Shown: piece by piece, positions 1 through 52,290 of the stretch
Position numbering within the stretch: position 1 is the stretch's first letter
How the letters are laid out: each line of letters starts with the position of its first letter
Source: Eledone cirrhosa
Taxonomy: Eukaryota
Assembly (NCBI GenBank): GCA_964016885.1
Contig: OZ024741.1
Location: 90,210,001-90,274,000, forward strand
Direction of reading: 5' to 3'
Length of the DNA stretch: 64,000 nucleotides
Position numbers and translations under genes: made by a program
The notes under the pieces: model-generated
What the model saw: only the letters and a program-made list of their open reading frames with translations
The model's database searches: none
What the model was told of the DNA's origin: nothing

Positions 1-814
<814 letters not shown>

Positions 815-978
815 ATTGTTATACTTTGGGAGGGTCATGTTGCCAATAAGAAACACACGCACCAGTTGCTTTCACTTCAATTTATTATATATTTATAATT
901 TTATAAATTTACAAATCTACAAACCTATAAATTTCTGGTTGGTTGGTTGGTTCCACAACCAGATAGTTGTTTATATAT

Positions 979-1023
979 AGTCATAGTCCTTTCGTCACAC
1001 ACTCTGTGACCTCTTCAGTGACT
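979..1023 (-). ncRNA. Minimal type I hammerhead ribozyme (PLE-A inverted pLTR)
   Basis: Reverse complement of the motif at 4714-4758. Confidence 0.8.
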
Positions 1024-1226
1024 GGGGATTCCTTTCTTTGTTTCTGTGCCTTTCCTTTCTTCTATCCTACGCCATTTTGTTTCTGTGTGTGTGTGTTGTG
1101 TGCTCAGTTTGCACATGCGCCACATCCGGGTGTCTGTGTGTGTTTGTGTTCATTTATCTATTTGTTTATTTATTTATTTATTTATTGGTTGTTTGTTCTA
1201 TGTGTGTGTGTGTTTTCATTTTGTCC

Positions 1227-1649
1227 TTAATTGTAAGTTGTGATGTTGCTGTTCCACTCATATTTTCTATTTAATTTTGGTTGTAATTCTTTTATGCTTA
1301 CTGCCTCTGTAATTTGCCTAAACATTGCGTCTTTTCTGTGTGTGGATTCTATTTTTATTTCTATGTTCTCCAATCTACCCCTGTGTTCCATCTCAGCATG
1401 TTGGTAGAGCACAGATGACTCCCCACTATCCCGAAGGTCCCGCCAGTGCTCACCCACCCGTTCCCCTACACTACGAGCCGTCTCACCCATGCACACCACA
1501 TTTCTGCTTCTACATTGTCCCTCAGTACATCCCATGCCATACACTACACCTCCAGTTTCACAGTCAATATGGGGGCTTATTTTACAGGTTATACATTTCC
1601 CATCTATACATGAGGGTCTTTGGAACGGGTATGTCTTGCTAATAAGTGC
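1227..1649 (-). pseudogene. Inverted duplicate of the PLE-A GIY-YIG endonuclease C-terminus
   Basis: The translation ALISKTYPFQRPSC...LNRKYEW is nearly identical to the C-terminus of ORF 3301-4512. Confidence 0.9.
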
Positions 1650-4512
1650 AATAGCAACATACCCAGAAACAACAACAACAGACACGCAGACACAAACAAC
1701 AATAACAACACACACAACAACGATAACACACACGGAGACAACAACAACACACGTCAACAACAACACACATCAACAACAACAACACACACGCATTCAATGC
1801 CTCTCACCACCACCACAATCTTAACAAACACACAGACACAGAAAACAAGTAATGACAGTAGCACAGAAATCAGAGAAATAAGGGAAAGTAATAAGATTAA
1901 AAGGAAAAGGAGATGGGAGACTAAGGACAAAGAGAATAACCAAGACGAACACACAGACACACAAAATAGGGTAGATAACAACATTGAGCCAGTGGAAAGA
2001 GACAGGAGTAATTATGAGAGACATAGAAACAACCATGAGGCTGTTGGTGGAAATAGAAATAGAAACAACACAACTAACAATAACAATAGCACTAGTACAC
2101 ATAACGCAGCAGCCTGGAACTCTCCGTTTTATAATCCCTCCGATAAATCATTCGACCTGCGACGAGTCCACGCCACGACTTTACCATTTAACAAACGCAC
2201 GCAGTTGCCGTCGCAGGTCGATGAACAAACAGAAGCACAATTTAGTATAGCTAAATCCGAACTTAGAAATATTATAGAACAGTATAGCAAGAAGCATAAT
2301 AGAATAGAGGCCCAGCAACTGGGAGAAAAATCTTCAAATGGCTTGCGTAAGCTCATGCAGCGCTCGCGTAATGGAGAGATAGCATGCTTTCCAACAGACA
2401 AGTCTGGCAGAATGTCGGTTGACAGCCTGCCAAACTACATCCAGGCAATGCAACCCCACATCACTAACACAAGAGAGGTAACACCACAGGAGCATGAGGA
2501 TAGAGAAAAAGCCCTCAATGCCCATATGGTGATGTGGACGAATATAATGCAGCCCAAAAAAGGACTGCCAACAACTTCCAGGCCTGGAACAATGACGTGC
2601 CGGCGTTGTATGGGCTTCGAAAAGACCATAAAACGGGCTGTGACCCTGTCGCGGGACCACCAACACGGCCAGTCTGTGGGGCTAACATTGCTAGTAACTA
2701 CAGACTGTCCTACTTCCTCTCCCTGATCATACGCCCCATCATTGAGATGTCCCCAGATGTATGTGACAGCACGGAGGACCTCCTCAGCAGAATCGGCGCG
2801 AGTAACCGATCTGGGGACCTAACAAACTGCATAATAGGCAGTATGGATGTTGTGTCCCTGTATCCATCTATTGACGTGGATTTTGCTGTGGAGAAATGCG
2901 TAGAAATGATCAGCGAGGGCAAGGTTGAGTTCCGTGGGATTGATACCAGTGAGCTGGGACTTCTGCTTAAGCTTGCCCATAGTAATGGTTGCCTAGACAC
3001 TTATGACCTTAGCAACCTGTGCCCTACAAGACCAGCAAGAGGCAGACCACCTAACATTGCCTCAATGGCCAAGAAAACCCGCACGGATAGATGGAGCGGG
3101 TGGACCAGAGCCATACGGACACCCGAGGACCACGATGAACTGAGGAAAATGATTGCACATGCGGTAGGGGCCAGCATAAAATTAAAATAAAAAATTAACC
3201 CTTAGGGAACATATATTTCAATTTTAATGGTAAAACATATGCCCAAGAGGAAGGAGCAGCCATTGGTGTTAGCATTGCAGGCGACATAGCTAACGTATTC
3301 ATGGTATGGTGGGACAGTGGACTTAAACAAAAACTTAAAGAACAATTAGAGGACAGCTTGGCCCTGATAATGTACTCCCGCTACGTAGATGATATAAACA
3401 TCGTAGTTAAGACACCCCCACTGGAGAACAGTCGGGAGCTGGAGAGGGGCACAGTGGAAGGCATCCAGCAAATAGCAAACTCCATCCACCAGAGCATTAG
3501 AGTTACTATAGACTACCCAAGTAGACACCCCAACCATCGATTACCTGTACTAGACACAGAGCTCTGGTTAGATACCATTAACAACCAAAAACAAATCCTC
3601 CATTCCCATTGTGCCAGACCCATGGCTTCCAGGCATCTGATCCACCGAAACTCGGCCATTTCGGACCATACCAAAATCAACATACTGATTGCGGATTTGG
3701 TACGGGTGATGAGAAATGTGTCCCGCATGTGCAACCCCGAAGAACTAGAGAGGCACATACAACACTTCATCCACCGTATGCAGTTCTCTGGCTACAATCA
3801 GAGAGATAGAATCAGAGTGTATAGAGGAGCCGGAGCCAAATGGGAAAAAATGGTAAATAATGACATGGGTGGGACCTGCCCCTTGTGTGGGAGCAAATTT
3901 TGGAATAGAGTGGAAGGAACTAGGAGCAAGGCCAATGGAATAAACTCATGGTATGATGGCAATAAATACCAGAGTGTAGTGTTCATCAATACAACCCCTA
4001 GAGGCGAACTAGCCTACAAATTTAGAAGGGCCCTAAATAAACATAGACTCAATATTAAGATGGTAGAAAGACCAGGTGCCTCCGTAGGGGCACTTATTAG
4101 CAATACATACCCGTTCCAAAGACCCTCATGTATAGATGGGAAATGTATAACCTGTAAAATAAGCCCCCATATTGACTGTGAAACTGGAGGTGTAGTGTAT
4201 GGCATGGGATGTACTGAGGGACAATGTAGAAGCAGAAATGTGGTGTGCATGGGTGAGACGGCTCGTAGTGTAGGGGAACGGGTGGGTGAGCACTGGCGGG
4301 ACCTTCGGGATAGTGGGGAGTCATCTGTGCTCTACCAACATGCTGAGATGGAACACAGGGGTAGATTGGAGAACATAGAAATAAAAATAGAATCCACACA
4401 CAGTAAAGATGCAATGTTTAGGCAAATTACAGAGGCAGTAAGCATAAAAAAATTACAACCAAAATTAAATAGAAAATATGAGTGGAACAGCAACATCACA
4501 ACTTACAATTAA
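1650..4512 (+). pseudogene. PLE-A RT/GIY-YIG ORF, disrupted
   Basis: Motifs PTDKSGR, PALYGLRKDHK, RPVCG, SMDVVSLYPSI, GAAIG, RYVDD, GETAR and LNRK.EW are present. There is a frameshift in an A-run near 2560 and a slippage duplication with a stop at about 3180-3197. YIG reads CMG. Confidence 0.9.
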
Positions 4513-4713
4513 GGACAAAATGAAAACACACACACACATAGAACAAACAACCAATAAATAAATAAATAAATAAACAAATAGATAAATGAACACAAACACA
4601 CACAGACACCCGGATGTGGCGCATGCGCAAACTGAGCACACAACACACACACAGAAACAAAATGGCGTAGGATAGAAGAAAGGAAAGGCACAGAAACAAA
4701 GAAAGGAATCCCC

Positions 4714-4758
4714 AGTCACTGAAGAGGTCACAGAGTGTGTGACGAAAGGACTATGACT
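4714..4758 (+). ncRNA. Minimal type I hammerhead ribozyme (PLE-A pLTR)
   Basis: AGTCA-CTGAAGA-G-GTCACA(GAGTG)TGTGAC-GAAA-GGAC-TA-TGACT: both core boxes, helix I and helix II are present. Confidence 0.8.
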
Positions 4759-5574
4759 ATATATAAACAACTATCTGGTTGTGGAACCAACCAACCAACC
4801 AGAAATTTATAGGTTTGTAGATTTGTAAATTTATAAAATTATAAATATATAATAAATTGAAGTGAAAGCAACTGGTGCGTGTGTTTCTTATTGGCAACAT
4901 GACCCTCCCAAAGTATAACAATATCGGTTTCAACACACGATTTCAGACAAAGAATCTTGCTAAACAAATTCAGCAACGAAATATATATATACGCATATAT
5001 ATATATATATGTTTATACGTGAATGTGCCGTGCGGGTGTAAAATATGTCATCAACTGCAAATCGCTTAATTCCTTTGAAATGTACTCCAAGGCAAGTATG
5101 AAATCCCCAGTCTTTCTCCTTCTCTGATCTCTCTCTCTCTCTCGCTCTCACACACACATATTCTTACATCCATACATATATAAACAAACATCACTTAAAA
5201 AGAATACGCTGTTAGATTCTCGTCTGAAATTGAACTCTTGCATTTCCTGCCGACATTTCAATTTCCTGCGAAATTGTAGGCCTTTACGTATGCAGTATAT
5301 TTATTTATATTGATTTGTGTTGGTATACCAGTGTTTATGTTTAAAATGCCAGATTGGCAGGAGGATATGTCGACGCCCGCAAGATTTATCTTCATCATAC
5401 CATTGAGAAACGTGTTCGATATGTATTCAAATAGACGAGGCATCATGGACAAGTGTTCTTTATCATAGTGACGGAGTGATCCAAGACTTGTTAAGAATCT
5501 GTATGGAAGTCTGTCAGATACATTGTACCTTTAATTCAGATATCCAGAATGGTAATCTTTAACGGAGCACCACA

Positions 5575-5845
<271 letters not shown>

Positions 5846-6066
5846 TATTGTTATATTTGGGGAGGGTCATATTTGCGTAATATTGCCAGAATTAATAACA
5901 GAACACACTCACTGTTTGGTTGGTTTTCGCTTCTCGCTGTCTTTTATATATATATATATCTGCGATCTAACTTACTCGGTCCTCAATGTTGCCATTGACT
6001 GACCGGCGGTCAAAAATAATACAGATACAATATAGACACAAACACATATATATAGTTTACATAATT

Positions 6067-6110
6067 TACATAAATCTTTCGTTGCACATCTGCAACATCG
6101 TCAGTGGTGT
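6067..6110 (-). ncRNA. Hammerhead motif (PLE-B left pLTR)
   Basis: Reverse complement of 10318-10362. Confidence 0.65.
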
Positions 6111-6379
6111 TATATTCATTGTTCCTCCTGTTGTGTTGTATGTCTACGCCATTTTTTTTTTTTTTTGTTCAGTCTGTCTATATATTTATTTATTTATTTG
6201 CTTGTTTGTTTATCTTATTTTATTTTGTCTTCTTTGCGCATGCGTTTGCGTGTGTGTATAGTGTTATGTGTGATGTGTGACTAGTGTGTATAGTGTTGTG
6301 TCTGCTGGGTGACTAGTGTGTGTTTATGTGCTTGTGTATGTATTTATTTATCTTATTTTATTTAATTTTATTTACTTAT

Positions 6380-8554
6380 TTATACTTCTCTTAGGTCAGT
6401 GTTGTTTGTTTGGGTGTTGTTGTTGTTCCACTCATTCTTTCTGTTTAGCTTTGGTCTTCTAATTTCTATTTCACTGGCCTCTCTGATTTGCCTATCTGCT
6501 GGGTCATTCCTATGTTTAGATATTATTCTAATTTCTATGTTGTCTATGTTACCGTCGTGTTGTTGTCTAGCATGTTCGTATAGTACTGACCCGTTTTTTC
6601 GTCCTTTTAGTTCCCCCCAGTGTTGGTCTATCCTTTCCCCTATGCTACGAGCTGTCTCACCTATGTATGTTGTTGTCATGTTTCTGCAAGTACCCTCTGT
6701 ACATCTTATGCTATAGACTACGTTTCTGGTTTTACAGTTTATCCGGGGGTTCACCTTACATATGATACATTTCCTATTAGTACAGTGGGTTTTCTTAAAA
6801 GGGTAGGTTTTGCTGATCAGGGATTTTATGGTGGTTCCTGGCTTTTCTACCACCTTAATTTTTAAGTGGGTCTTTCTCAGGGCCTTTCTACACTGGTTAG
6901 CTAATTTCCCTCCAGGGGTGGCATCCACAAACATGACACTCTGATATCTCTGGTTGTCGTACCATGATGTGGCCTTCCCTATCTTATGTCTAGCCCTATC
7001 TAAGCTATTCCATGATTTGCTCCTGTATAGTGGGCAAATTCCTTTCATGTCCAGTTCTATGAGGGTCTTATACTTTTCCATGGCTCCTTCGTATACTCTG
7101 ACTCTGTCTCTTTGGTTGTAGCCAGAGAACTGCATGCGGTTGATGAAGTGTTGGATGTGTCCTTCCATTTCTGTTGGGTCGCACATGCTGGACACATTCT
7201 TCATCACTCGTACCAAATCTGCGATCAGAATATTAAACTTAGCACTACTGGACATTGCTGAGTTTTTGAGTATCAGGTATTTGGAGGCCATGGGTTTAGC
7301 ATAGTGTGAGTGGAGAATTTGGGCTCTCTCGTCTATAGTGTTAATCCAGAGTTCTGTGTCTAATACAGGTAGTCTATTGTTAGGGTGTTTGGAAGGGAAG
7401 TCTATAGTTACAGTTATACTCTGGTGTATGGAATTAGCTATCTGCTGGATGCTTTCCATCGTGCTACGTTCTAAATCAAACTTGTTAGTGCTCTCTAGTG
7501 GGGGTGTTCTTATAACTATATTGATATCGTCTACATAACGAGAGTACATGATGAGGTCTATGGAGTTTTCATTAAGGAGATCTTTAAGTCTCCTTTCCCA
7601 CCATACCATGAAAAGGTTGGCAACATCACCAGCTATGCTGACGCCGATGGCTGCTCCCTCATTTTGGGTGTAGATTTTCTCATTGAACTTAAATATGTGG
7701 CCCTTTAGGGTAGTTTTGATACTAGCCTCTATTGCATGTGCGACCATTTTTCTTACCTGATCAGTGTTTTGGGGGGTCCGTATAGCTTTGGTCCACCCAA
7801 TCCACCTTCCTATGGGAGTCTTTTTAGCCATTGAGGTTATGGTGGGGGGTCTACCTCTTATAGGTCTACTAGGGCAGAAACATCTAAGGTCATGGCTGTC
7901 TAGGTAGTCAGTGTCGTAGGTAAGTCTAAGTAGGAGGCCCAGTTCGTCTGTGTCGACGTCGCAGAACTCCACCTCACTCTCAATGATCATCTCCACACAT
8001 CTTTTCACAGCAAAATCAATGTTAATGGATGGGTACAGTGACACCACATCCATGCTGCCTATTATGCAGTTGGATAGGCTCCTGTTTTTGTTGCACTCAC
8101 TGATTCTGCTGAGGAGGTCCTCTGTACTTTCACATACATCTGGGGACATCTTGATTATGGGGCGTATAACCATTGAGAGGAAGTAGGAGATCCTGTAGTT
8201 GCTAGCTATATTAGCTCCGCATACGGGTCTTGTTGGTGGTCCTGTTGTCGGGTCGTCGACTGTCTTGTGGTCTTTGCGGAGCCCATACAAGGGTGGTATG
8301 CCATTGTTAGACGCCTGGAAGTTGTTGGCAGTGCGTCTGCTTGGCTTTAGGATGTCAGTCCACATCATCATGTGAGCGTTGAGGATTTTTTCTCTCCCAT
8401 CGTGTGTTAGTTGTGCAACTTCGCTCGTGTTGGTGATGTGGGGTTGCATTGCCTCGATGTAGTTCGGCATGCTATCTATTGACATCCTACCAGACTTATC
8501 TGTGGGTAGACACACTACCTCACCATCCCTTGTGCGCTGCCTGAGGCTAACCAA
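6380..8554 (-). CDS. PLE-B reverse transcriptase plus GIY-YIG endonuclease (5'-truncated, uninterrupted 724 aa)
   Basis: PTDKSGR, PPLYGLRKDHK, SMDVVSLYPSI, RYVDD, HYAKPMAS, Cys-rich linker, VVYSIRC...YIGETAR, LNRKNEW. Confidence 0.93.
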   Translation of the reverse strand: MVSLRQRTRDGEVVCLPTDKSGRMSIDSMPNYIEAMQPHITNTSEVAQLTHDGREKILNAHMMMWTDILKPSRRTANNFQASNNGIPPLYGLRKDHKTVDDPTTGPPTRPVCGANIASNYRISYFLSMVIRPIIKMSPDVCESTEDLLSRISECNKNRSLSNCIIGSMDVVSLYPSINIDFAVKRCVEMIIESEVEFCDVDTDELGLLLRLTYDTDYLDSHDLRCFCPSRPIRGRPPTITSMAKKTPIGRWIGWTKAIRTPQNTDQVRKMVAHAIEASIKTTLKGHIFKFNEKIYTQNEGAAIGVSIAGDVANLFMVWWERRLKDLLNENSIDLIMYSRYVDDINIVIRTPPLESTNKFDLERSTMESIQQIANSIHQSITVTIDFPSKHPNNRLPVLDTELWINTIDERAQILHSHYAKPMASKYLILKNSAMSSSAKFNILIADLVRVMKNVSSMCDPTEMEGHIQHFINRMQFSGYNQRDRVRVYEGAMEKYKTLIELDMKGICPLYRSKSWNSLDRARHKIGKATSWYDNQRYQSVMFVDATPGGKLANQCRKALRKTHLKIKVVEKPGTTIKSLISKTYPFKKTHCTNRKCIICKVNPRINCKTRNVVYSIRCTEGTCRNMTTTYIGETARSIGERIDQHWGELKGRKNGSVLYEHARQQHDGNIDNIEIRIISKHRNDPADRQIREASEIEIRRPKLNRKNEWNNNNTQTNNTDLREV

Positions 8555-8598
8555 GCCCTAGTAGACCTATAAGAGGTAGACCCCCCACCATAACCTCA

Positions 8599-10050
8599 AT
8601 GGCTAAAAAGACTCCCATAGGAAGGTGGATTGGGTGGACCAAAGCTATACGGACCCCCCAAAACACTGATCAGGTAAGAAAAATGGTCGCACATGCAATA
8701 GGGGCTAGTATCAAAACTACCCTAAAGGGCCACATATTTAAGTTCAATGAGAAAATCTACACCCAAAATGAGGGAGCAGCCATCGGCGTCAGCATAGCTG
8801 GTGATGTTGCCAACCTTTTCATGGTATGGTGGGAAAGGAGACTTAAAGATCTCCTTAATGAAAACTCCATAGACCTCATCATGTACTCTCGTTATGTAGA
8901 CGATATCAATATAGTTATAAGAACACCCCCACTAGAGAGCAATAACAAGTTTGATTTAGAACGTAGCACGATGGAAAGCATCCAGCAGATAGCTAATTCC
9001 ATACACCAGAGTATAACTGTAACTATAGACTTCCCTTCCAAACACCCTAACAATAGACTACCTGTATTAGACACAGAACTCTGGATTAACACTATAGACG
9101 AGAGAGCCCAAATTCTCCACTCACACTATGCTAAACCCATGGCCTCCAAATACCTGATACTCAAAAACTCAGCAATGTCCAGTAGTGCTAAGTTTAATAT
9201 TCTGATCGCAGATTTGGTACGAGTGATGAAGAATGTGTCCAGCATGTGCGACCCAACAGAAATGGAAGGACACATCCAACACTTCATCAACCGCATGCAG
9301 TTCTCTGGCTACAACCAAAGAGACAGAGTCAGAGTATACGAAGGAGCCATGGAAAAGTATAAGACCCTCATAGAACTGGACATGAAAGGAATTTGCCCAC
9401 TATACAGGAGCAAATCATGGAATAGCTTAGATAGGGCTAGACATAAGATAGGGAAGGCCACATCATGGTACGACAACCAGAGATATCAGAGTGTCATGTT
9501 TGTGGATGCCACCCCTGGAGGGAAATTAGCTAACCAGTGTAGAAAGGCCCTGAGAAAGACCCACTTAAAAATTAAGGTGGTAGAAAAGCCAGGAACCACC
9601 ATAAAATCCCTGATCAGCAAAACCTACCCTTTTAAGAAAACCCACTGTACTAATAGGAAATGTATCATATGTAAGGTGAACCCCCGGATAAACTGTAAAA
9701 CCAGAAACGTAGTCTATAGCATAAGATGTACAGAGGGTACTTGCAGAAACATGACAACAACATACATAGGTGAGACAGCTCGTAGCATAGGTGAAAGGAT
9801 AGACCAACACTGGGGGGAACTAAAAGGACGAAAAAACGGGTCAGTACTATACGAACATGCTAGACAACAACACGACGGTAACATAGACAACATAGAAATT
9901 AGAATAATATCTAAACATAGGAATGACCCAGCAGATAGGCAAATCAGAGAGGCCAGTGAAATAGAAATTAGAAGACCAAAGCTAAACAGAAAGAATGAGT
10001 GGAACAACAACAACACCCAAACAAACAACACTGACCTAAGAGAAGTATAA
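8599..10050 (+). CDS. PLE-B RT C-terminal half plus GIY-YIG endonuclease (5'-truncated)
   Basis: 483 aa, differing from the minus-strand copy at only two visible residues. Confidence 0.9.
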   Translation: MAKKTPIGRWIGWTKAIRTPQNTDQVRKMVAHAIGASIKTTLKGHIFKFNEKIYTQNEGAAIGVSIAGDVANLFMVWWERRLKDLLNENSIDLIMYSRYVDDINIVIRTPPLESNNKFDLERSTMESIQQIANSIHQSITVTIDFPSKHPNNRLPVLDTELWINTIDERAQILHSHYAKPMASKYLILKNSAMSSSAKFNILIADLVRVMKNVSSMCDPTEMEGHIQHFINRMQFSGYNQRDRVRVYEGAMEKYKTLIELDMKGICPLYRSKSWNSLDRARHKIGKATSWYDNQRYQSVMFVDATPGGKLANQCRKALRKTHLKIKVVEKPGTTIKSLISKTYPFKKTHCTNRKCIICKVNPRINCKTRNVVYSIRCTEGTCRNMTTTYIGETARSIGERIDQHWGELKGRKNGSVLYEHARQQHDGNIDNIEIRIISKHRNDPADRQIREASEIEIRRPKLNRKNEWNNNNTQTNNTDLREV

Positions 10051-10317
10051 ATAAGTAAATAAAATAAAATAAAATAAGATAAATAAATACATACACAAGC
10101 ACATAAACACACACTAGTCACCCAGCAGACACAACACTATGCACACTAGTCACACATCACACATAACACTATACACACACGCAAACGCATGCGCAAAGAA
10201 GACAAAATAAAATAAGATAAACAAACAAGCAAATAAATAAATAAATATATAGACAGACTGAACAAAAAAAAAAAAAATGGCGTAGACATACAACACAACA
10301 GCAGGAACAATGAATAT

Positions 10318-10362
10318 AACACCACTGACGATGTTGCAGATGTGCAACGAAAGATTTATGTA
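10318..10362 (+). ncRNA. Hammerhead motif (PLE-B right pLTR)
   Basis: CTGACGA-T-GTTGCA(GATG)TGCAAC-GAAA-GATT-TA. Helix I is weak. Confidence 0.65.
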
Positions 10363-11144
10363 AATTATGTAAACTATATATATGTGTTTGTGTCTATATT
10401 GTATCTGTATTATTTTTGACCGCCGGTCAGTCAATGGCAACATTGAGGACCGAGTAAGTTAGATCGCAGATATATATATATAAAAGACAACGAGAAGCGA
10501 AAACCAACCAAACAGTGAGTGTGTTCTGTTATTAATTCTGGCAATATTACGCAAATATGACCCTCCCCAAATATAACAATATCTGTTTCGACACACGATT
10601 TCATATAAAAAACCTCGCAAAACTAATTCATCGCCGCTATATATATCTATATATATATATATATCTATATATATCTATATATATCTATATATCTATATAT
10701 ATATCTATATATATCTATATATATATACATATATATATAAATATAAATTAGCGAGAATCGTATTTCGGCTATTGGAAATTAGCGAAAAACAACTTCCGAG
10801 ATGTGTGACAAGCGCTCCATAGAAGCTAGTGAACTAGAGCTACAACATAAGTTAAAAGGCCAAACACACTGAGACGATGGTTAAACCATTATCCGCACAG
10901 CCACAGAAACGACCAAGTAATTTGGGTCAAACAAATAAAATATGATAGAAAATTATACCCGGACCTCTGGAAGGTTGGTACCACTGCTAGTATATGAATA
11001 TAAGATATAAATATATATAAGATATAAATATATATATATATTTATTTATTTATATATATATTTATTTATATATTTATATATTTTATATATTATATATATA
11101 TTTATATATTTACATCTTATATATTTATATCTTATATTCATATA

Positions 11145-11728
11145 CTAGCAGTGGTACCCGGCGTTGCAAGAGATAAGGTATTGTGAAATATATAACCGCC
11201 TTAGCTAAGCTTAGTATTGCCACAACCACGGCTGGCAAAGAAGTAAGGATCTGGTGGTACGTAAGTAAGTAACACTGTGGCTTAAAACGTGAGTAAGAAG
11301 TTGTGTGCATTAACCAACTGTTTGGGGAATAAGTGTGAGATTTGTCTTGAACAAGGGTGGCAAAATAACTGGAGGCAGCAGACAGCCAGACATACAGACA
11401 GATATTATAAGGGCGCGTTCTGGACGCAGAGCGAATTGTAGGAAGTGACGTAATGCAGACAGCCAAACATACAGACAGATATTATAAGGGCGCGACGTTA
11501 TATGTATGTATCTATCTAAAAAGAGAAAGACTAAGAATTATAGAGAGAGATCGCTAAATCGCCTAATACGGTCCCTAGGGCATTGAAAATTTGAATTTTC
11601 TTTTGCTCAGAACACTCCCTGACATATAAGTATTACATGTGTAAAGTTTGAAAACACTCTCTTGGGTGTTTCTCTAGTTTTAGGGGTTCAAACTCACACA
11701 CAGACATCCTCAGTTTTATATATATGGA
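11145..11728 (-). mobile_element. Non-autonomous Helitron
   Basis: On the minus strand it starts TCCATATATATAAAA and ends GCAACGCCGGGTACCACTGCTAG, inserted between A and T. Confidence 0.75.
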
Positions 11729-13485: not shown

Positions 13486-14390
13486 CTACATTTTAAATTT
13501 AAATTTATATTTAAACGTTGAGTTTAATCTATGTTTGCAACAACTGAATAAATTTGTCCGTAGGTTAAGGGAATTTTTAGATTTTAGTATAAAGAATATC
13601 TCCTCTGCGCAGAGGTCACATGTCTCAGAGGATGAATTAAAAGGAATCCCCCTTGAGACTATATTCCAAGCCGTCGAATATCTAACGTTATCTAGCTTAA
13701 GTTGCCAGAGTACGCCTGATAGTGCCGTTGAAGATTTTTTACTTGGATCTGTGAAAGAATTCTTGTGGTTATTATAGCGAAGTTTAAATTCCGTCGATGT
13801 GGAACCGACGTAGTTAAAAGAATTACAATTGTATACTATATTTTTAACTAAGCAGTTGTTATTTAACGGAAATTTAGATCTATCTCTACAGTTACATTTG
13901 TTAACTTGTATATTATTTATGCTATTATCAATAGGTTTTAAGTTCCTATTATTTATTCTATTAATATTTTGTGCTAAATTTTTGGTGGATGAGTAGGTTA
14001 ATTTAATTGTATGCCTATTGAAAATTGAGTGATACCTATGTGTTCTAGGGAAGCGATTATCAAGAGCTTTGAAAAATAATTTAGCGATGTGGGTTTTAAT
14101 GTTTAGTGAGAAGGGGGGGGGGGGCAAACCAAATTATGTTCCTAGTTCTATTTCTTTTTTGGCCTTTGGAATTATTGTAATGCTTTCTATTATAGTTGTT
14201 AATGTTGTTGCCGTAATTAAAAAAGTTGTTACTTTGTTTAGTTTGTCTATCATTATCTATGTACACAATCTTATCAGCATATCCTGCCCTAGCTAATGCT
14301 TCATTATAGTATTGGGCCTTTTCGTCGAAAATCTTTCTATTCGACGAGATCCTAGAGATACGTTTTTGAACTGAGTTTACTATAGTGGTT
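13486..14390 (-). pseudogene. PLE RT thumb plus GIY-YIG endonuclease fragment
   Basis: YYNEALARAGY, WFAPPP-FS (frameshift in a C-run), IFNRHTIKLTYS, CNCR, IVY...YVGST, CDLCAEE. Confidence 0.88.
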
Positions 14391-14604
14391 TTTCTCACAC
14401 ATATATATATATATATACAATATATAAATACATAAATATATATATATATATACAATATATAAATACATATGTATAATATATATATATTTATATATTATAC
14501 ATATGTATTTATATGTAAAAATATATATATATTTATGTATTTATATATTGTATATATATATATATATGTGTGAGAAAAACCACAGACCCTCCATCTCAAC
14601 TCTA

Positions 14605-24887: not shown

Positions 24888-25585
24888 CTAAAGGAATAAG
24901 GGTGGGGAGTTCAGGCCGGGGGGAGTGTGGGTCTGTAAGATGAAGATGGTTCTTTGTTCGACTCTGAGGAGATTGGCGGGTGTTCCGTGGCATTGGAGTA
25001 GGCCACAGACTGTGAGATGGCGTGCGGAATGTCCAGGGGCACCAAAGTGGCGGGCGATGGGGGAACTACCACCGAGACGAATATCCCGGAGGTGCTCAGT
25101 GAATCGGTCCGCCAGGCGACGTCCCGTCTGTCCGACGTAAGTCGCGCTGGACTCCGTGCAGCGAAGTCCGTAGACTAGCTTGGAGGAGGTGCAGCGGAAG
25201 GCATGCCGGACAGAGAGAGAGTGGCCGTTGGGACCCTGGAAGGTGGTGGTGTTGGTGATGTGGGGACAGGTGTTGCAGCGGGGCCTAGAATAGGGAAAGG
25301 AACCGGGGGGAGGGAAGAGCGTGGGTTGGGGGGTAGGGAGCTGTGGACGAGGAGGGTGCGGAGATTGCGTGCGCGTTTGAAGGAGGGGAGTGGTGGGGTT
25401 GGGAAGATGTGGGAGGTGGAGGGGTCGGACTGGAGGCGTCGGAAGAGGCGGTGGAGGGGTGGTAGGTGATGGGGAAGGGGAGACGGTGGGTGGGTGTGCG
25501 GTGGGGTGAGGGTGGTGGAGCGGTGGACAGCACGGGCGCGGGTGAGATCGGTGTGGACGAGAGAGGGGGGTAACCTCTGCGGATG
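24888..25585 (-). pseudogene. Neptune-type GIY-YIG endonuclease and linker (absent from the ORF track)
   Basis: Manual translation: PITYHP...RARNLRTLLVHS...RPRCNTCPHI...FRCTSSKLVYGLRC...YVGQTGRRLADRFTEH...PIARHF...EQRTIFILQTHTPPGLN. Confidence 0.88.
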
Positions 25586-25768
25586 ATGGCTGCCAACTCG
25601 TTTTCGAGTACGGCCACTACTTTATATCCATGTAGGAGAATGTGTGTCTCTATATATATATATATACACACATGTGGTTACTTGATAAAATACATTTAGA
25701 GATAAAAGGAAGGCACAAACAAGTGACAGTCCCCTCCCCTCTTCAGTTGTCTGCTGGAGGTCACCGAC

Positions 25769-25807
<39 letters not shown>

Positions 25808-25812
<5 letters not shown>

Positions 25813-26407
25813 TGAAATAAAATGAAAACGAAATTTCATTTCTCACTCTTAGTATGGCACTTACTTAAATGTAAGTATGTATGTATACGTACATACATAT
25901 ATGTATACAGACGTACAGTAGCATGCATATATACGCTACTGTACGTATACATACATACTTACATTTAAGTAAGTGCCATACTAAGAGTGAGAAATGAAAT
26001 TTCGTTTTCATTTTATTTCAACTTATCGTTTTCGGTATGCCTGACCGATTTAACTCACTCAATATGCAAATTAGGCTGCTCAGCCGTTAATTTTCATAAG
26101 GAAAGTATATACTTTCGAACGTTCAACTATCTGGCAGATGGGTATACGGTGCTGATGATAGCTAACAAGCTTGAAACTAGTACATCGTTCCTGTGTCAGT
26201 GTTGAACAAAAAGGTGACGTGGTTGCCTTAACACCGTATGGCATAAATTCAGGCTGTTCAGTTTGTTTACAAACGAACAAAGCGGCGTTATAATAAGCGT
26301 CCGCTAAACTGATGCGTGCATATATGTATGTGTACCTGTATGTATATATATATATATATATATATATGCATGCTACTGTACGTCTGTATACATATATGTA
26401 TGTACGT

Positions 26408-26412: not shown

Positions 26413-26453
<41 letters not shown>

Positions 26454-26459
<6 letters not shown>

Positions 26460-28458
26460 ATATTTGGGGAGGGTCATATTGTTATAATATTGTCAGAAAT
26501 AATAGGTTACTATTTTCTATTGTATACTTTCTTAAAGTATAAAAATATTGAATATAGAAATAAGTAGTGTTACTACAACAACGATGACCTTATATTTAAT
26601 TACTCGTAATTGGCCTATTTACAGAATATTTCCTTTGCCCCCAAAGTTACTTTATCTGGCAATCAATGTTTATTTTTGACCAACGGTTAAAAATAAAGAT
26701 ATAAATATATATATATATATATATAGTCTATCAAAGTTCTTTCGTCACACATCTGTGACATCATCAGTGGTACTATTATGTTTCCTCCCGTTGTATTGTA
26801 ATGCCTACGCTATTTTTATTTTGTTTATTTATTTATTTATATTTCCCTTAGGTCAGTATTGTTTATTTGGGTATGGTTGTTATTATTCCATTCGTCTTTT
26901 CTGTTCAACTTTGGTTTTCTTAGTTCTATCTCCGATTTGCCTACCTGTTAAGTAATTTCTATGCTTAGATTTTAATTTCTATGTTGTCTATATTACCATC
27001 ATGTCTTTGTCTGGCGTGTTCATATAGTACTGAACCGGTTTTGTCCTTTTTAGTTCCCCCAAGTGCTGGTCTAGTCTTTCTCCTATGCTTCGTCATGTTT
27101 CTGCAAGTACCCTCTGTACATCTTATGCTATAGGCTACATTTCTAGTTTTACAATTTATCTGGGGGTTCATTCTACATATAACACATTTCTTATTCGTAC
27201 AGTGGGTTTTCTTTCCGATCAGGGATTTTATGGTAGTTCCTGGCTTTTCTACCACTTTAATCTTTAGCTGGGCCTTTCTACATTGCTTAGCTAATTTCCC
27301 TCCAGGGATAGCATCCACGAACATGACACTCTGGTATCTTTGGTTGTCGTACCATGAAGTGGATTTCTTTATCTTATGTTTAGTCCTATCTAAGCTATTC
27401 CATGATTTTCCCCTGTATAATGGGCAAATTCCTTTCGTGACCATTTCTATGAGGGTCTTATATTTCTCCGTGGCTCCTTTGTATACTCTGATTCTGTCTC
27501 TTTGGTTGTTGCCAGAGAACTGCATTTGGTTGATGAAGTGTTGGATGTCTCTTTCCATTTCAGTTGGGTCGCACATGCAGGATACATTCTTCATCACTCG
27601 TACCAAGTCAGCGATCAGAATATTAAACTTAGCACTATTGGACATTGCTGAGTTTTTGAGTATCAGGTATTTGGAGGCCATGGGTTTAGCATAGTGTGAG
27701 TGGAGACTTTGGCCCCTCTCGTTTATAGTGTTTAACCGGTGTTCCGTGTCTAATGCTGGTACTCTATTGTTAGGGTGTTTGGAAGGATAGTCAATAGTTT
27801 CACTTATATTTTGGTGTATGTAGTTAGCTATCTGCTGGATGCTCTCCATTGTGCTATTTTCTAGGTTCAGGTTTATTGGTACTCTCTTGTGGGGGTGTTC
27901 TTATTACTATATTAATATCGTCTACGTAACGAGAGTACATAACGAGGGCTATGGAGATTTCTTTTAGGAGTTCTCTGAGTCTCCTTTCCCACCACACCAT
28001 AAATAGATTGGCAACATCGCCAGCTATGCTGACGCCAATGGCTGCCCTCTCATTCTGGGTGTAGATTTTTTTCATTAAATTTAAACATATGGCTCTTTAG
28101 GGTAGTTTTAATACTAGCCCCTATTGGATGTGCGACCATTTTTCTCACCTGGTCGTTGTTTTGGGGTGTCCGTATGGCTTCGGTACATCCATTCCATCTT
28201 CCTATGGGAGTCTTTTTAGCCATTGAGGTTATGGTGGGGGGTTTACCTCTTATAGGTCTATTGAGGCAGAAACAGCTAAGGTCATAATTATCTAAGTATT
28301 CAGTGTCATAAGTAAGTTTAAATAGGAGGTCCAGTTCATATGTGTCGACGACGCAGAACTCCACCCCACTCTCACTGATTATTTCCACACATTTTCCACA
28401 GCAAAATCAATGTCAATGGATGGGTACAGGGATACAACATCCATACTGCCTATTATGC
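26454..28458 (-). mobile_element. Degenerate PLE related to PLE-B
   Basis: Frameshifted RT/EN pieces (28050-28388, 27854-28075, 26965-27849) homologous to PLE-B, with the same ATTGTTATATTTGGGGAGGGTCAT terminus. Confidence 0.9.
26723..26776 (-). ncRNA. Hammerhead motif (PLE-A/B family)
   Basis: CTGATGA-T-GTCACA(GATG)TGTGAC-GAAA-GAAC-TT. Confidence 0.7.
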
Positions 28459-28479
28459 ATTATATATACATAATTCTTT

Positions 28480-34700: not shown

Positions 34701-35277
34701 TTCGCAGCATTTAGTTGGTAGGCATGAAACTGTGGATTGTGAGAGGTGGGGATTATAGGGTCATGCTGCTTGAAGAACGTTAATGATGTTAGCTAAATAG
34801 AATTGGGTTTGGTCGAGATTCGAAACTAATTCGCGTAGAAGACTTGACAACTATCCTCATTTAAACCGTGTTCATTACACTTTGAGCTGGATATATTCTG
34901 TTAAAATGGCATATAAACTAGTTTGAATAAATACTTTAAATAAATACTAAAATAATACATACAAGGAAGCCTTTGCATGGTAACTCAATATGCAAGAAAT
35001 ACTATATAAAAACTTCCCTCAAACCATATTCTATCTTTTCTAAAAACGGGCGCATACATTGGATAAAGTAGTGCTAAATACATTCTCTGAAAATAGGATG
35101 GGATGGTACAAGTTGAAGCGCCTTACTCATACATCTGCTTCAGCGTAGAAGAAATCATTACATACATAAACATACATACATCCATTCATACATACATGCA
35201 TATATACATACATAGATACATATGAGTGAAATTTGTTAGATGGAAACTGTTGTATATACACACACACGTATATATAT

Positions 35278-36000
35278 ATAAATGATATAGATATCCCAGT
35301 AGGTACTAGGTACCCACGGAAATATATATGGTGTCTATAATAGTGGTTGTTCTATGGTACTAATTTGATATACCAGAACTGTAAATATGAGCGGAACAAG
35401 TAAACATTAAACAATCTTTCAAATAAATTAAAATACGATTTAAATATTTACCTCTATGGCACTAGAAGAGGTAAATATTTAAATCGTAATTTAATTTATT
35501 TAAAAGATTGTTTAATGCTTACTTGTTCCGCTCATATTTACAGTTCTGGTATATCAAATTAGTACCATAGAACAACCACTATTATAGACACCATATATAT
35601 TTCCGTGGGTACCTAGTACCTACTGGGATATCTATATCATTTATCTAATTCTCCTTAATGTAGAGAAAAAAATGCTGTATCATGCTGCTATTTCTAGCAG
35701 CATGAAATATCAGAGAGTCTATAATTCCCGCTTTTTCTAACGGTCCAATAAGTGTGTGGGTCATTTTAACGGCTTGATTCATTCACTGGGCAGAGGGTGA
35801 TATATCTACATCTATACGGACTTATGTCTAGTAGATTTGGAAAAGCAATCTGAAGAGCTATATCTTTCCATTTGAAATCCTCTGAATTTCCAATCTTTTG
35901 ATAAGCGAAACCGTCGGTCATGGCACTAGAAGAGGTAAATATTTAAATCGTATTTTGATTTATTTGAAAGATTGTTTAATGTTTACTTGTTCCGCTCATA
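35278..36000 (+). mobile_element. Retrozyme-like 464 nt HHR unit with direct terminal repeat and inverted arm
   Basis: Direct repeats 35456-35536 and 35920-36000. Inverted arm 35278-35455 versus 35467-35644. TA flanks. Confidence 0.8.
35845..35924 (+). ncRNA. Type I hammerhead with large loop II
   Basis: GCAAT-CTGAAGA-GCTATATC...GATAAGC-GAAA-CCGTCGG-TC-ATGGC. Confidence 0.7.
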
Positions 36001-36024
36001 TATATATATATATATATATATATT

Positions 36025-37725
36025 TAAGCCACACGGCTTATCCGTGACGATAGATCCTAGCACTAAGACGGTGAATTCCCTGGACGTTACCCTGGAAATG
36101 ACTACGGGCATCCACCGACCTTATTTCAAGCCCAATGAGAACCTGCAATATGTGAACAGGCAATCGAACCACCCCAAGTCAGTAGAAGCAATAGTTAAAG
36201 GGGTATCTAAACGCGTATCCACCCTGTCGGCCAACGCAGACGTGTTCAAACACCACGCCGACTATTATAATGAGGCACTGCGCAGGGCCGGTTACACAGA
36301 TAGCATAGTGTATACCACAGACAGGGAAGAGCCTAGCGCCGAGGCATGTGGATACGGCAATAGGTAGAAGAAATGACCCGGTACTAGCCTCCAAGAACAC
36401 GAGTAGTAACACAGTTCACCTTAAAGACACAGGACCCACAATAGGACAGACGAAGACACACACGGGCGCTGGATCACCCAGTACACGTAGGCAAAAGCCC
36501 GGCACGCACACCACATGCGTCGCGGTAACTAGAACTAGGGACAGGGTAACGACAAGTACGACCGTGGCACCCGTTATAGGAAACACCCGACCTGGTAGCA
36601 GTGGTATAGCCCCGACAACAGCACCACATAGCATTAAAGAGACTAACAGTGGAGCCGACAATACAAAACGGAATACCTTAGTAAGTGAAAGGCATAACCA
36701 TGACGCCCACAGCAGACATATAGATAGAGGCAACATAGGGGACGTAATAATGGGCGGGCAAAACCCGAGACGGACATCAGACCCAAGACACACTCACACG
36801 ACTACACACACACGAAAGAACAAGACTAGATCTAAGGCCGTTACATGGTTTAACGCGTCGTATTCTAAGCATGTACGCAGGAATGTGCCAGGGCTTTATT
36901 TCCAAGCGTTAGACGAGTGTTTCCCGCCGTCGAACAAATACCACAAGATTTTCAACCGCCACACGGTGAAGTTTTCCTTCCCCACAGGACCTGACATGGC
37001 CGACTACATGGCCAAAACCAACGCGGTAAAGATGGGGAATCTCGACCGTCAACCGCAGTGGCAGAATGACCGTCCATCGGATCTCGGAGGGCCCCTCGAA
37101 GACCGGTTTCCAACAACAACCCGGCCCTCGCGGCTGCCGCCACGCCCGCGAAAGGTGATACAATCCAACGCCGGGAGGGAACGAGTGGCGGAGGGGAGAC
37201 GACCTTGCCGGCGGAACAACACCCTGAGAATCAGGAGAGGGACCTAGCAGATCAAGGACCAGGCGTCCGAAATGAACAAAATAACAATGTAACTGCAGAG
37301 CGGGCACCCAGTGCCCCCTGCAGGGAAGATGTCTGACGAAGGGCCTGGTATATAAATGTGTGGTTAGCACGCACAATATAAAGCGCACCTACATCGGCGC
37401 AACATCCACGAGCTTTAAATCGCGGATGTATAACCACACGAACTCTTTCAAGGACCGCAGTAAGAGGCAGTCTACTAGGCTAACGGACCTGGTGTGGGAC
37501 TTGAAAGACAAGGGCACCCCGTACGCCCTTGAATGGAGTATCGTTCTGCACGCGAATGCATACTCGGCTAAGAGTAGAAAGTGTAGCCTATGCCTATACG
37601 AGGCCATGGAAATAGTCAGACTGAAGGATGATGCGGTCAACCTGAAATCGGAAATAATCATGACGTGCAGACACCAGAGAAGGTGCACACTCTCAGCATG
37701 GAATCCACCGGGAATCCTAGGCTAA
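36025..37725 (+). pseudogene. PLE RT thumb plus GIY-YIG fragment (WFN / CNC..CPL type), frameshifted
   Basis: LDVTL, YVNRQSNHP, YYNEALRRAGY, TWFNASYS, KIFNRHTVKFSF, CNCRAGTQCPLQGRCL, LVY...YIGAT, CSLCLYE. Confidence 0.88.
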
Positions 37726-38800: not shown

Positions 38801-39180
38801 GCGCAGAGAAGAAGAGAAAACTAAAAAAAATAAATAAATAAACAGATTAAATAAAGATGGCGTAGATATACAATACAACAGGAGGAAACATAATAGTACC
38901 ACTGACGATGTTGCAGATGTGCAACGAAAGAACTTTGTTAGACTATATATATGTGTTTGTGTCTATATTATATCTGTATTTTTGACCGTTGGTCAGTCAA
39001 TGGTAAACATTGAGGACCGAATAAATTAACTGATATAAAAGACACAGAGGCGAAAACCAACCAAACAGTGAGTGTGTTCTGTTATTAATTCTGGCAATAT
39101 TATAACAATATGACCATCCCCAAGTATAACGATATTTGTTTCGACACACGATTTCATATCAAAAACTTCGCAAAACAAAT
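38800..39180 (+). mobile_element. Solo pLTR plus 3' extension of the PLE-B family (HHR at 38893-38946)
   Basis: Homologous to 10190-10625, with CTGACGA-T-GTTGCA..TGCAAC-GAAA. Confidence 0.85.
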
Positions 39181-40135: not shown

Positions 40136-40138
<3 letters not shown>

Positions 40139-41742
40139 TGTACCAGGAAGAGGCACCACTGATGCCCTCTTCATTGTGAGGCAGTTACAGGAAAAGTACC
40201 TAGCTAAAAGTAAGCCACTCTACCTGGCATTCGTCGATCTTGAGAAAGCCTTTGACAGAGTTCCACGTGCTATAATCTGGTGGACTCTTAGAAAACTAGG
40301 AGTAGATGAATGGCTTGTGAAAGCTGTACAAGCCATGTATAGGGGAGCAGTCAGCAAAGTTAGGATTAGCAATGAGTATAGCGAGGAATTTAGCGTACAG
40401 GTCGGTGTCCACCAGGGCTCTGTTCTTAGCCCTCTCCTGTTCATCATAGTCCTGCAAGCAATAATGGAGGAGCTTAAGACTGGATGTCCATGGGAACTCC
40501 TGTATGCAGATGACCTCGCACTTATAGCTGAGTCTATGGTAGAACTAGAGAAGAAATTCCAAACTTGGAAGCAGGGACTAGAAAGAAAGGGTCTCAAAGT
40601 CAATCTGACAAAGACTAAGGTCCTTGTAAGTAGACGAGAAAACAGAACTCAGATTCCCTCAGGGAAATGGCCTTGCTCAGTATGTAGGAAAGGTGTAGGT
40701 AGGAACTCCATTCTCTGCCCCAAATGCAAACAATGGGTACACAAGAGATGTAGCGGGATCTCAGGAAGCTTAATTAAGAATGTAGGCTTCACATGTAGCA
40801 GCTGTGCTGGAACAGCAAACAACCACAGGAAACAAGTATCACCAATCTCTGGGAGGGCTCTGTAGAAACAGTAGACAGCTTCTGCTACCTAGGTGACCGA
40901 ATTAGCAGCGGAGGTGGGTGTTCAGAAAGTACAATAACTAGGGTAAGAACGGGATGGAAGAAGTTCAGGGAGCTACTGCCACTGCTAGCTGCAAAAGGCT
41001 TTTCCCTCAAAATGAAAGGCAGACTGTATGATGCGTGTATACGAACAGCAATGTTACACGGTAGTGAGACCTGGGCGCTGAAGGTGGAAGACTTACGTAG
41101 ATTAGAAAGAAACGAAGCCTGCATGCTCCGATGGATGTGTAATAGTAATATACGCGAACTGCAAAGCATAAATGAATTGAGAGAGAGACTGAGCATAAAA
41201 GGAATCAAATGCTGTGTGTAGGAGAGGCGGTTGCGTTGGTATGGACATGTGATGCGTATGACGGAATACAGCAGCATAAAAAGGTGCAGAGCACTAGAAG
41301 TCAATGGAAACCGCGGAGTGGTGAGACCCAAGAAGACCTGGGATGAGGTGATAAAAGCCGACCTTACCCAATTACACCTCTCAAAGGCGATGACACGCCT
41401 ACAGAGTACCCGACCTCCCATGGATACAAGCCGAAACTGAAGCTTATAGACAATATGCCCCCACACCCTCCCACTGCAAAGCGGTCGTGGAGGTGCCACG
41501 GCAAAAAAGCACCCAGTCCACACTGTAAAGTGGACGTGTAGGCGCCACGGAAAAAAAGCACCCAGCACTCACTGTAAATGAGGTTGGTGTTAGGAAGGGC
41601 ATCCAGCTGTAGAAATCAAGCCAGAATCAGTTCCCGTATGAGCAAGACAAGGTCAGCCGACCAGACACTGCCCACAACAGGACAACCCGTCTAACCCATG
41701 CTAGCTGGAAGAACGGACGTAAAACGGTGATGATGATGATGA

Positions 41743-51797: not shown

Positions 51798-51846
<49 letters not shown>

Positions 51847-51852
<6 letters not shown>

Positions 51853-52290
51853 GATATTAATAAATGGAAACTATATTTATAAAACCATATTTATTTCATT
51901 ATACATATTTCAGGGATACCAAATTAAATTATGGTATGCCTTCATCAGGCAAAATACAATATATAACAGTTTTACAAATAAGCTTTGACGTACCCTATTA
52001 AAATGCAACCATTGTTTTGGGAAGTCATCCAAAAACAATGGTTGCATTTTAATAGGGTACGTCAAAGCTTATTTGTAAAACTGTTATATATTGTATTTTG
52101 TCTGATGAAGGCATACCATAATTTAATTTGGTATCCCTGAAATATGTATAATGAAATAAATATGGTTTTATAAATATAGTTTCCATTTATTAATATCGTA
52201 TATCTACTCCAAAAACTTGTCGAGTGCTTTATATCAGTTATAAAAAATATTTACTTGTTGTATCCCAACAATTTTAAATAGAACTTTTGC
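51847..52290 (+). mobile_element. Palindromic PLE 3' end (~175-bp arms) with two HHRs (51892-51956 minus, 52094-52158 plus)
   Basis: Arms 51847-52022 and 52028-52203. TATTTTGT-CTGATGA-AGGCATACCA..TGGTATCCCT-GAAA-TATGTA-TA-ATGAAATA. Confidence 0.8.

Follow-up and report, generated by a model that had tools for sequence, protein, structure and literature searches.

In the accessible text of two earlier reports, EN+ Penelope-like elements (PLEs) combine a reverse transcriptase (RT) of telomerase-like type with a C-terminal GIY-YIG-type domain, a CCHH motif and a CX2-5CxxC linker, and they can show an inverted 5'-truncated copy, a tail on one end, a (TA)n target, a junction palindrome and an Asn-rich coding stretch (PMC8557442, PMC3846280). 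The origin of the tandem and inverted structures is described there as unresolved (PMC8557442), and self-priming on an antisense template is one proposed route to the head-to-head forms (PMC3846280). The tail, 30-40 nt in length, is often present on only one PLE end, and its trimming by the endonuclease has been proposed (PMC8557442). As reported in the available portion of PMC11167929, the purified protein of Poseidon PAc from Anolis carolinensis, predicted to be dimeric, cleaves an AT-rich target and extends both target strands in vitro; its RT has two neighbouring start points, between which the tail lies, and a Y17A substitution at the YIG tyrosine abolishes its nuclease activity.

Deaminases are known to leave scars in reverse-transcribed elements. 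In ADAR-hypermutated avian retroviruses and HTLV-2/STLV-3, inosines are fixed as G by reverse transcription at densities of nearly 50% locally, and one such case lies in an inverted-repeat region (PMC12925331, accessible part). APOBEC editing has been recognised in integrated copies by direction and strand bias; those scars are cDNA C>U changes in vertebrate LTR elements, and the G-to-A screen, as presented in the available text, covered LTR elements, with 19 invertebrate genomes at noise level (PMC4866542, PMC2873906). The accessible part of PMC5625713 describes massive editing of Penelope RNA in lizard and an exceptionally high hyper-editing rate in octopus.

The window analysed here (64,000 nt of the Eledone cirrhosa contig OZ024741.1, positions 90,210,001 to 90,274,000) contains a PLE copy, E1 (813-4980), which is 5'-truncated and carries a head-to-head inverted arm. 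On the top strand it reads as microsatellite, the last 835 nt in antisense (813-1649), a sense copy (1650-4924), the tail (4925-4980) and microsatellite again; both flanks belong to one microsatellite, which bears on any target-site duplication. E1 shares with the EN+ PLEs all the features listed above. Its tail is longer, at 56 nt, the upstream direct pLTR is absent owing to the 5' truncation and, unlike the EN+ PLEs of the accessible descriptions, it bears a strand-specific load of A>G changes common to both arms. Its ends fit the behaviour of PAc in vitro, although PAc probably belongs to another PLE clade and its available account does not take up inverted arms, editing or the number of templates. 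The A>G load resembles that of the hypermutated retroviruses in its apparent fixation by reverse transcription and in its inverted-repeat setting, but those are exogenous LTR viruses, whereas E1 is chromosomal, presumably germline and of non-LTR type, and its density is lower, at about 9% overall. It resembles the APOBEC scars in being recognised from direction and strand bias in an integrated copy, and differs in being an RNA-type A>G change in a PLE.

Table 1 Positions of the features of E1 and of its comparators in the window
Feature	Position	Strand	Remark
(AT)n array interrupted by ACGC, E1 insertion target	1-812		ACGC-interrupted unit continues at 4981-5010
Short arm of E1, inverted, 5'-truncated	813-1649	-	Endonuclease-region end and 3' UTR/pLTR; no tail; A>G sites as in forward arm
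Quasi-palindrome across head-to-head junction 1649/1650	1627-1664		13-bp stem, 2-nt bulge, -9.8 kcal/mol as DNA
Long 5'-truncated E1 copy	1650-4924	+	RT and GIY-YIG-type endonuclease, preceded by an Asn-rich N-terminal region and followed by the 3' UTR/pLTR
RT region of E1	2340-4100	+	Keeps SMDVVSLYPSI and YVDD motifs; frame interrupted
Net A>G excess zone of E1	2600-4399	+	Symmetric comparison with paralogs
Forward arm of E1	4090-4924	+	Duplicated as 813-1649
CX4CX2C linker and GIY-YIG-type endonuclease of E1	4126-4512	+	YIG reads CMG
Arm difference (T at 4104)	4104/1635		K/N
Arm difference	4404/1335		R/S
Arm difference	4410/1329		Silent, CpG
Arm difference	4450/1289		E/K
Arm difference	4626/1113		Non-coding, CpG
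Hammerhead-like core in E1 pLTR	4711-4748	+	CUGANGA, stem II, GAAA
PLE tail of E1, 56 nt	4925-4980	+	On one end only
Comparator PLE E2	5846-10637	-	Long arm minus 8557-5846, no tail; short arm plus 8555-10582, tailed; no strand-specific A>G excess
Comparator PLE E3	26452-28459	-	Decayed; neither tail nor inverted arm seen

Three further copies of the family lie in the window: E2, E3 and a solo 3' end near 38824-39180. E2 and E3 are about 68-70% identical to E1 at the DNA level (range for E1 versus E2, 59-70%). E2 retains an open 725-aa frame and is a useful control for tail and arm models. Its arms differ by seven substitutions in 2027 nt (99.6% alike over 2 kb), three of them A/G and none C/T, which are too few to read. 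The long arm of E2 has 680 nt of extra 5' sequence absent from the short arm, while the short arm bears a 55-nt tail missing from the long arm; thus, neither arm is a simple copy of the other. The E2 junction shows a 3-4 nt overlap (8555-8558) and a weak hairpin only. Tails homologous to that of E1 are found in E2 (10583-10637) and in the solo copy, which ends near 39180. The tail-less ends of E1, E2 and E3 share a stop at the TATAACAAT(AT) terminus, beyond which the tailed ends extend by about 45-56 nt of homologous sequence, and this common terminus suggests that the arm end is made by the PLE machinery. The tail occupies exactly one end in both E1 (long arm) and E2 (short arm).

The family of E1 and E2 is an EN+ PLE family with a telomerase-related RT, whose fold is predicted by a structure model of E2 (mean pLDDT 86.5; top seven Foldseek hits all telomerase RTs). 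A PDB profile search returned RTs only, plus one unrelated weak match, and the Pfam RVT_1 match was weak (E=0.011). Pfam GIY-YIG gave no direct match to E1 or E2. The E2 endonuclease domain aligns (E=8e-9) with a window fragment that scores 22.3 bits against Pfam GIY-YIG (cut-off 22.6), and the VVY...Y-G, R, H, E and N positions are conserved in the family. Across 50 sequences, C608 and C619 of the CCHH motif and C592, C597 and C600 of the CX4CX2C linker are invariant, and H646 and H662 of the CCHH motif are near-invariant; both motifs are present in E1. A CX2-5CxxC linker upstream of GIY-YIG is a Neptune/Nematis feature in the accessible text of PMC8557442, and E1 carries this motif. The E1 endonuclease retains the R, H, E and N positions, with its YIG changed to CMG at codon 4246. 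The closest named protein, from Octopus vulgaris, matches the last ORF of E1 at 59% and E2 at 69%, which points to an octopus as the probable host. An (AAC)n Asn/Thr-rich coding stretch lies at 1650-2100, 5' of the E1 RT, where the N-terminus of the octopus protein is Asn/Ser-rich; it recalls the N-rich inserts described in the available text of PMC3846280.

The pLTR of E1 holds a short core that by eye resembles the hammerhead consensus. Rfam hammerhead gave no match in the E1 pLTR. The core occurs in four pLTR copies (4711-4748, about 10325-10355, 26740-26770 and 38900-38935), in all of which stem II is fully paired, with two compensatory pairs (14/500 shuffles).

The two E1 arms (813-1649 versus 4924-4090) are 99.16% identical over 837 columns and differ by five substitutions and one 2-nt CA-repeat indel. 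Exactly three of the substitutions alter a residue, in agreement with the first-pass annotation, which had counted about three; the inverted segment that it placed at 815-1649 is present, with a measured start at 813. Judged from the aligned relatives, the substitutions probably arose in the forward arm at 4104, 4404, 4410 and 4450 and in the inverted arm at 1113. Two of the five are CpG transitions, and the set has the look of mutations acquired in the usual way after insertion. The E1 reading frame is broken at three places: in an A run near 2556-2561, by a duplication-like insertion near 3180-3195 and in a T run near 3222-3225. The coding arms are free of such breaks, all three being confined to the unique coding part; two affect homopolymer runs, and the load is slightly above that expected from the 0.6% arm divergence. 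The junction hairpin has a chance of about 0.002 among 20,000 random breakpoint pairs. An assembly artefact is unlikely to be the source of arms that differ at six places and whose anatomy is like that of E2.

Protein searches yielded no close unedited parent or sibling of E1 (best matches 49%, 59% and, on short stretches, at most 55%). A>G was therefore tested symmetrically, E1 against paralogs about 70% identical, a design in which single edited sites stay uncertain. Against E2, E1 shows 160 A>G and 91 G>A changes (p=1.6e-5), with 61 T>C and 75 C>T (p=0.26); against E3, the counts are 140 A>G and 65 G>A, with 59 T>C and 56 C>T. Within the arm alone, the comparison with E2 gives 43 A>G and 17 G>A (p=0.001). 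The A>G changes on which the first-pass annotation built its argument are thus borne out as a strand-specific, directional excess. Split by codon effect, A>G and G>A number 111 versus 60 at non-synonymous and 49 versus 31 at synonymous sites, and the per-base synonymous A>G rate in E1 (0.27) is not above that of other transitions (0.26-0.34).

The net excess, assessed over the coding region, amounts to about 70 sites. Its density is about 6-12% of A in 2600-4089 and about 23% in 4090-4399 (Fisher p=0.06, Poisson resampling p=0.01), and neither 2340-2599 nor 4400-4500 showed any detectable net excess. The data do not support an abrupt rise in editing at 4090, since radical sites are also densely packed at 3830-3940 and 4084-4089. 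Clustering, diluted by the 30% background divergence, is weak: adjacent pairs number 49 versus 37.9 (p=0.017), and the densest 60 nt gives p=0.16. At A>G sites, the 3' neighbour is G in 33/114 cases versus 6/62 in the control (p=0.004) and the 5' neighbour is U in 26/105 versus 7/62 (p=0.044); a 5' G is found in 18/105 versus 13/62 in the reverse-direction control (p=0.54), with p=0.04 in the three-way set. Invertebrate hyper-editing, according to the accessible part of PMC5625713, favours a downstream A and not a downstream G.

The changes also strike conserved residues. We compared E1 and E2 at 315 columns conserved among 179 relatives, which were those of 259 proteins that aligned to E2 with at least 33% identity over at least 100 aa. 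Radical residues occur at 33 of these columns in E1, 16 A>G-explained and 17 other, and at 14 in E2, 2 A>G-explained and 12 other; an alternative C>G or T>G route is open to 4 of the 16. At the A>G-struck columns, 84-100% of relatives keep the ancestral-type residue, among them the second GIY-YIG tyrosine (116/116 relatives; Cys in E1) and a lysine kept in 163/163, and several codons require two or three A>G changes each. It is therefore unlikely that these are ordinary subfamily alleles, the finding that the first-pass annotation had named as fatal to its reading. At the 437 columns where E2 equals the Octopus vulgaris protein, E1 deviates at 79 (33 A>G-explained, 11 G>A), while the reverse test gives 54 deviations (13 A>G-type, 14 G>A; p=0.042). 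We rejected the idea that E2 is edited as well, its A>G and T>C rates being alike (23/393 and 12/228) and its radical A>G-explained sites only two.

Together, these results indicate that ADAR is very probably the enzyme behind the A>G changes of E1. Post-insertion mutation is rejected as their source, the arms being only 0.6% diverged. Since the coding strand shows the A>G excess and T>C is not raised, the inosines sat on sense RNA, and it is a sense-strand RNA that fixed the edits, a statement that applies to the fixing round. An antisense template, or deamination of cDNA in a hybrid, would read as T>C and is thus disfavoured for that round; the polarity conflicts, at least there, with the antisense-template idea as given in the available text of PMC3846280.

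All 43 candidate A>G sites of the coding arm carry G in both E1 arms (43/43), of which a net of about 26 are edits and the remainder ordinary divergence at about 70% identity. The peptide quoted in the first-pass annotation is identical in the forward and inverted copies, its motif being partly native (homolog P0001 has SIGERVGEH). No arm-private A>G was found in the E1 coding arm. At 108 sites E2 and the forward arm both read A; the inverted arm has G at one of them (4450), where the forward arm is probably the one that changed, E being the commonest family residue. The edits are therefore older than arm formation, in line with the first-pass inference that they pre-date insertion, and the matching arms imply that one molecule fed both or that the donor DNA itself carried the Gs beforehand. 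Two independently edited RNAs, with a net of 26 edits among 172 A, would give about 44 discordant sites, while 0-1 are seen (P about 4e-21); if editing were site-specific, two RNAs would match with P=0.02 at 90% and P=0.26 at 95%. The proposal that both arms came from one RNA or from its first cDNA thus holds in so far as two same-round, independently edited RNAs are ruled out. Identical arms are equally predicted by an edited DNA master, and the first-cDNA option is weakened by the anatomy of E2, with its tail on the short arm. Near-identity of arms is generic, being found in E2 likewise. We lean slightly towards a single RNA of the same round as the template of both E1 arms; the editing and template conclusions concern one locus (n=1). 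Whole-unit copying of an edited hairpin RNA is rejected, as it predicts arm-private T>C changes and none are seen.

The alternative that survives best, unlikely but worth serious thought, is that one or more earlier rounds fixed the edits in a DNA copy which was later mobilised in trans, possibly through two unedited RNAs; the edits would then be real and yet uninformative on template number. PLE trans-mobilisation is described in the accessible text of PMC3846280 and of a retrozyme preprint (bioRxiv 10.64898/2026.07.22.740005), and the identical arms, the three frame breaks outside the arms and the uneven A>G gradient, which could reflect several rounds, would all fit. However, non-A>G radical changes are about as few in E1 as in E2 (17 versus 12 of 315), so no long phase as a dead master is evident, and a hyperedited copy would have had to keep its promoter and stay productive. 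No sibling locus with the E1 pattern was found among the three other window copies or the protein-level matches (at most 59%), a weak point, since broken copies are poorly represented as proteins.

Under a single template, a long first-strand cDNA could have snapped back at 4090 and copied the short arm from itself, which we consider improbable. Such self-copying accounts for the perfect sharing of sites, for a short arm lying wholly inside the long one and for the junction palindrome of E1. In E2, however, each arm carries private sequence, and with the tail on the short arm and the 680 nt on the long arm a simple fold-back of the first cDNA fails there, unless tails were trimmed later by the endonuclease, in which case this objection is void. 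In E1, self-copying would need an exact stop at the common pLTR terminus, and the junction similarity is same-sense and does not prime fold-back of the long cDNA.

Later homogenisation, in which gene conversion or a post-insertion inverted duplication spread an edited arm, is very unlikely. The arms are only 2.4 kb apart and a complete early conversion would be traceless, but an unbroken tract covering at least 4121-4490 would be needed before the five substitutions, the outer arm end falls at the terminus that E1 has in common with E2 and E3, and the 2-kb arms of E2 are equally alike. Just as hard to credit is an ordinary subfamily in which base drift or RT error bias gave the G excess: the distance of the comparators, the weak clustering, the non-significant 5' G depletion and the C>G or T>G routes would allow it, but the changes keep to one strand and one direction, hit conserved residues including the invariant YIG Tyr and the 163/163 Lys, need two or three steps in several codons and show a U-A-G context.

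For the single-RNA reading, we propose a mechanistic model. A sense PLE transcript in double-stranded form would have undergone ADAR deamination across 1.8 kb or more, with a net of about 70 A>I changes; the duplex may have come from a long inverted arm of the donor locus or from an antisense partner. The edited molecule would then have been reverse-transcribed into an (AT)n break, both arms copying one set of edited nucleotides. Both ends of the cut target would prime cDNA on the same RNA at two adjacent, tail-defining start sites, one cDNA starting at the pLTR terminus and the other about 56 nt further out. One cDNA may displace the other from the RNA, which would survive; PLE RT is not known to have an RNase H. 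The cDNA 3' ends would stop apart (1650 and 4090) and be joined head-to-head by a short snap-back or microhomology, the E1 junction hairpin being a product of the short cDNA snapping back and priming its own extension, or else a native resemblance that directed where the ends were joined. The endonuclease probably came from unedited RNA.

Under double priming, one end and only one should bear a tail, which is what E1 and E2 show. Two initiations are likely, and the shared edits of E1 suggest that both can take place on one RNA. We thus favour two RT starts on one RNA for the E1 arms, with two loci as its basis, and prefer double priming to fold-back only tentatively, somewhat short of probable. 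In LINE-1 twin priming, an inversion results when both target ends prime on a single RNA; what is flipped in L1 is a 5' segment, and the 3' end is not duplicated. The inverted arm of E1 differs in duplicating the 3' 835 nt, so that both arms hold the 3' end.

By analogy with Y17A in PAc, the Cys at the YIG tyrosine may likewise kill the nuclease of E1, and its protein was likely supplied in trans. Mobilisation in trans, which the first-pass annotation had deduced from a dead GIY-YIG, is thus likely given the Tyr-to-Cys change and yet not forced: the protein may have been translated before editing or encoded by a different unit within a tandem transcript, and the RNA may instead have entered at a pre-existing break.

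Inverted arms, tails and junction palindromes are already known PLE features. In the literature searched, mostly openly readable main texts, no genomic PLE copy edited by ADAR turned up, nor any use of RNA edits for template counting. Random inosines act as a molecule-specific barcode, and a genome screen for edited PLEs could count the templates per insertion and read the template strand; in E1 the edits came via sense RNA, against the antisense-template idea. If the reading of E1 is true, the passage of ADAR edits from transposon RNA into heritable DNA is not confined to retroviruses, and such edits can inactivate the endonuclease of a PLE. If the edits were instead already fixed in a donor copy, the mechanistic point falls and the heritable ADAR scar stays. 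It is tempting to speculate, as a possibility that we consider doubtful, that PLE inverted arms arise in general from two RTs on one sense RNA, which begin at the two start sites delimiting the tail and of which one displaces the other, and that the hairpin transcripts of such insertions are ADAR-scarred and rewritten into the germline. If so, barcoded copies would be numerous in ADAR-rich cephalopod genomes and would document past RNA editing in the germline, and the scarring of inverted insertions would be a self-limiting brake on PLEs.

The window holds further PLE-like material. A head-to-head palindrome (35275-35647, 97.8%) adjoins a PLE-like copy, and a 74-nt portion of the palindrome is repeated at 35931-36004; ORF pieces of RT-like and GIY-YIG-like character lie at 35939-36364 and 37285-37722. 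A minus-strand PLE-like remnant (13489-14583) has a GIY-YIG-like frame and, on its 5' side, an AT-rich palindrome (14385-14583), and a minus-strand fragment at 24891-25616 (Pfam GIY-YIG, 22.3 bits) belongs to a different PLE family. Near-perfect long palindromes occur at 25809-26024, 51844-52206 and 10977-11158, the first two beginning directly at (AT)n; related single arms of the long palindromes lie elsewhere in the window, and they are potential dsRNA sources. A LINE-type RT ORF fragment, labelled by eye from its motifs, lies at 40137-41218.
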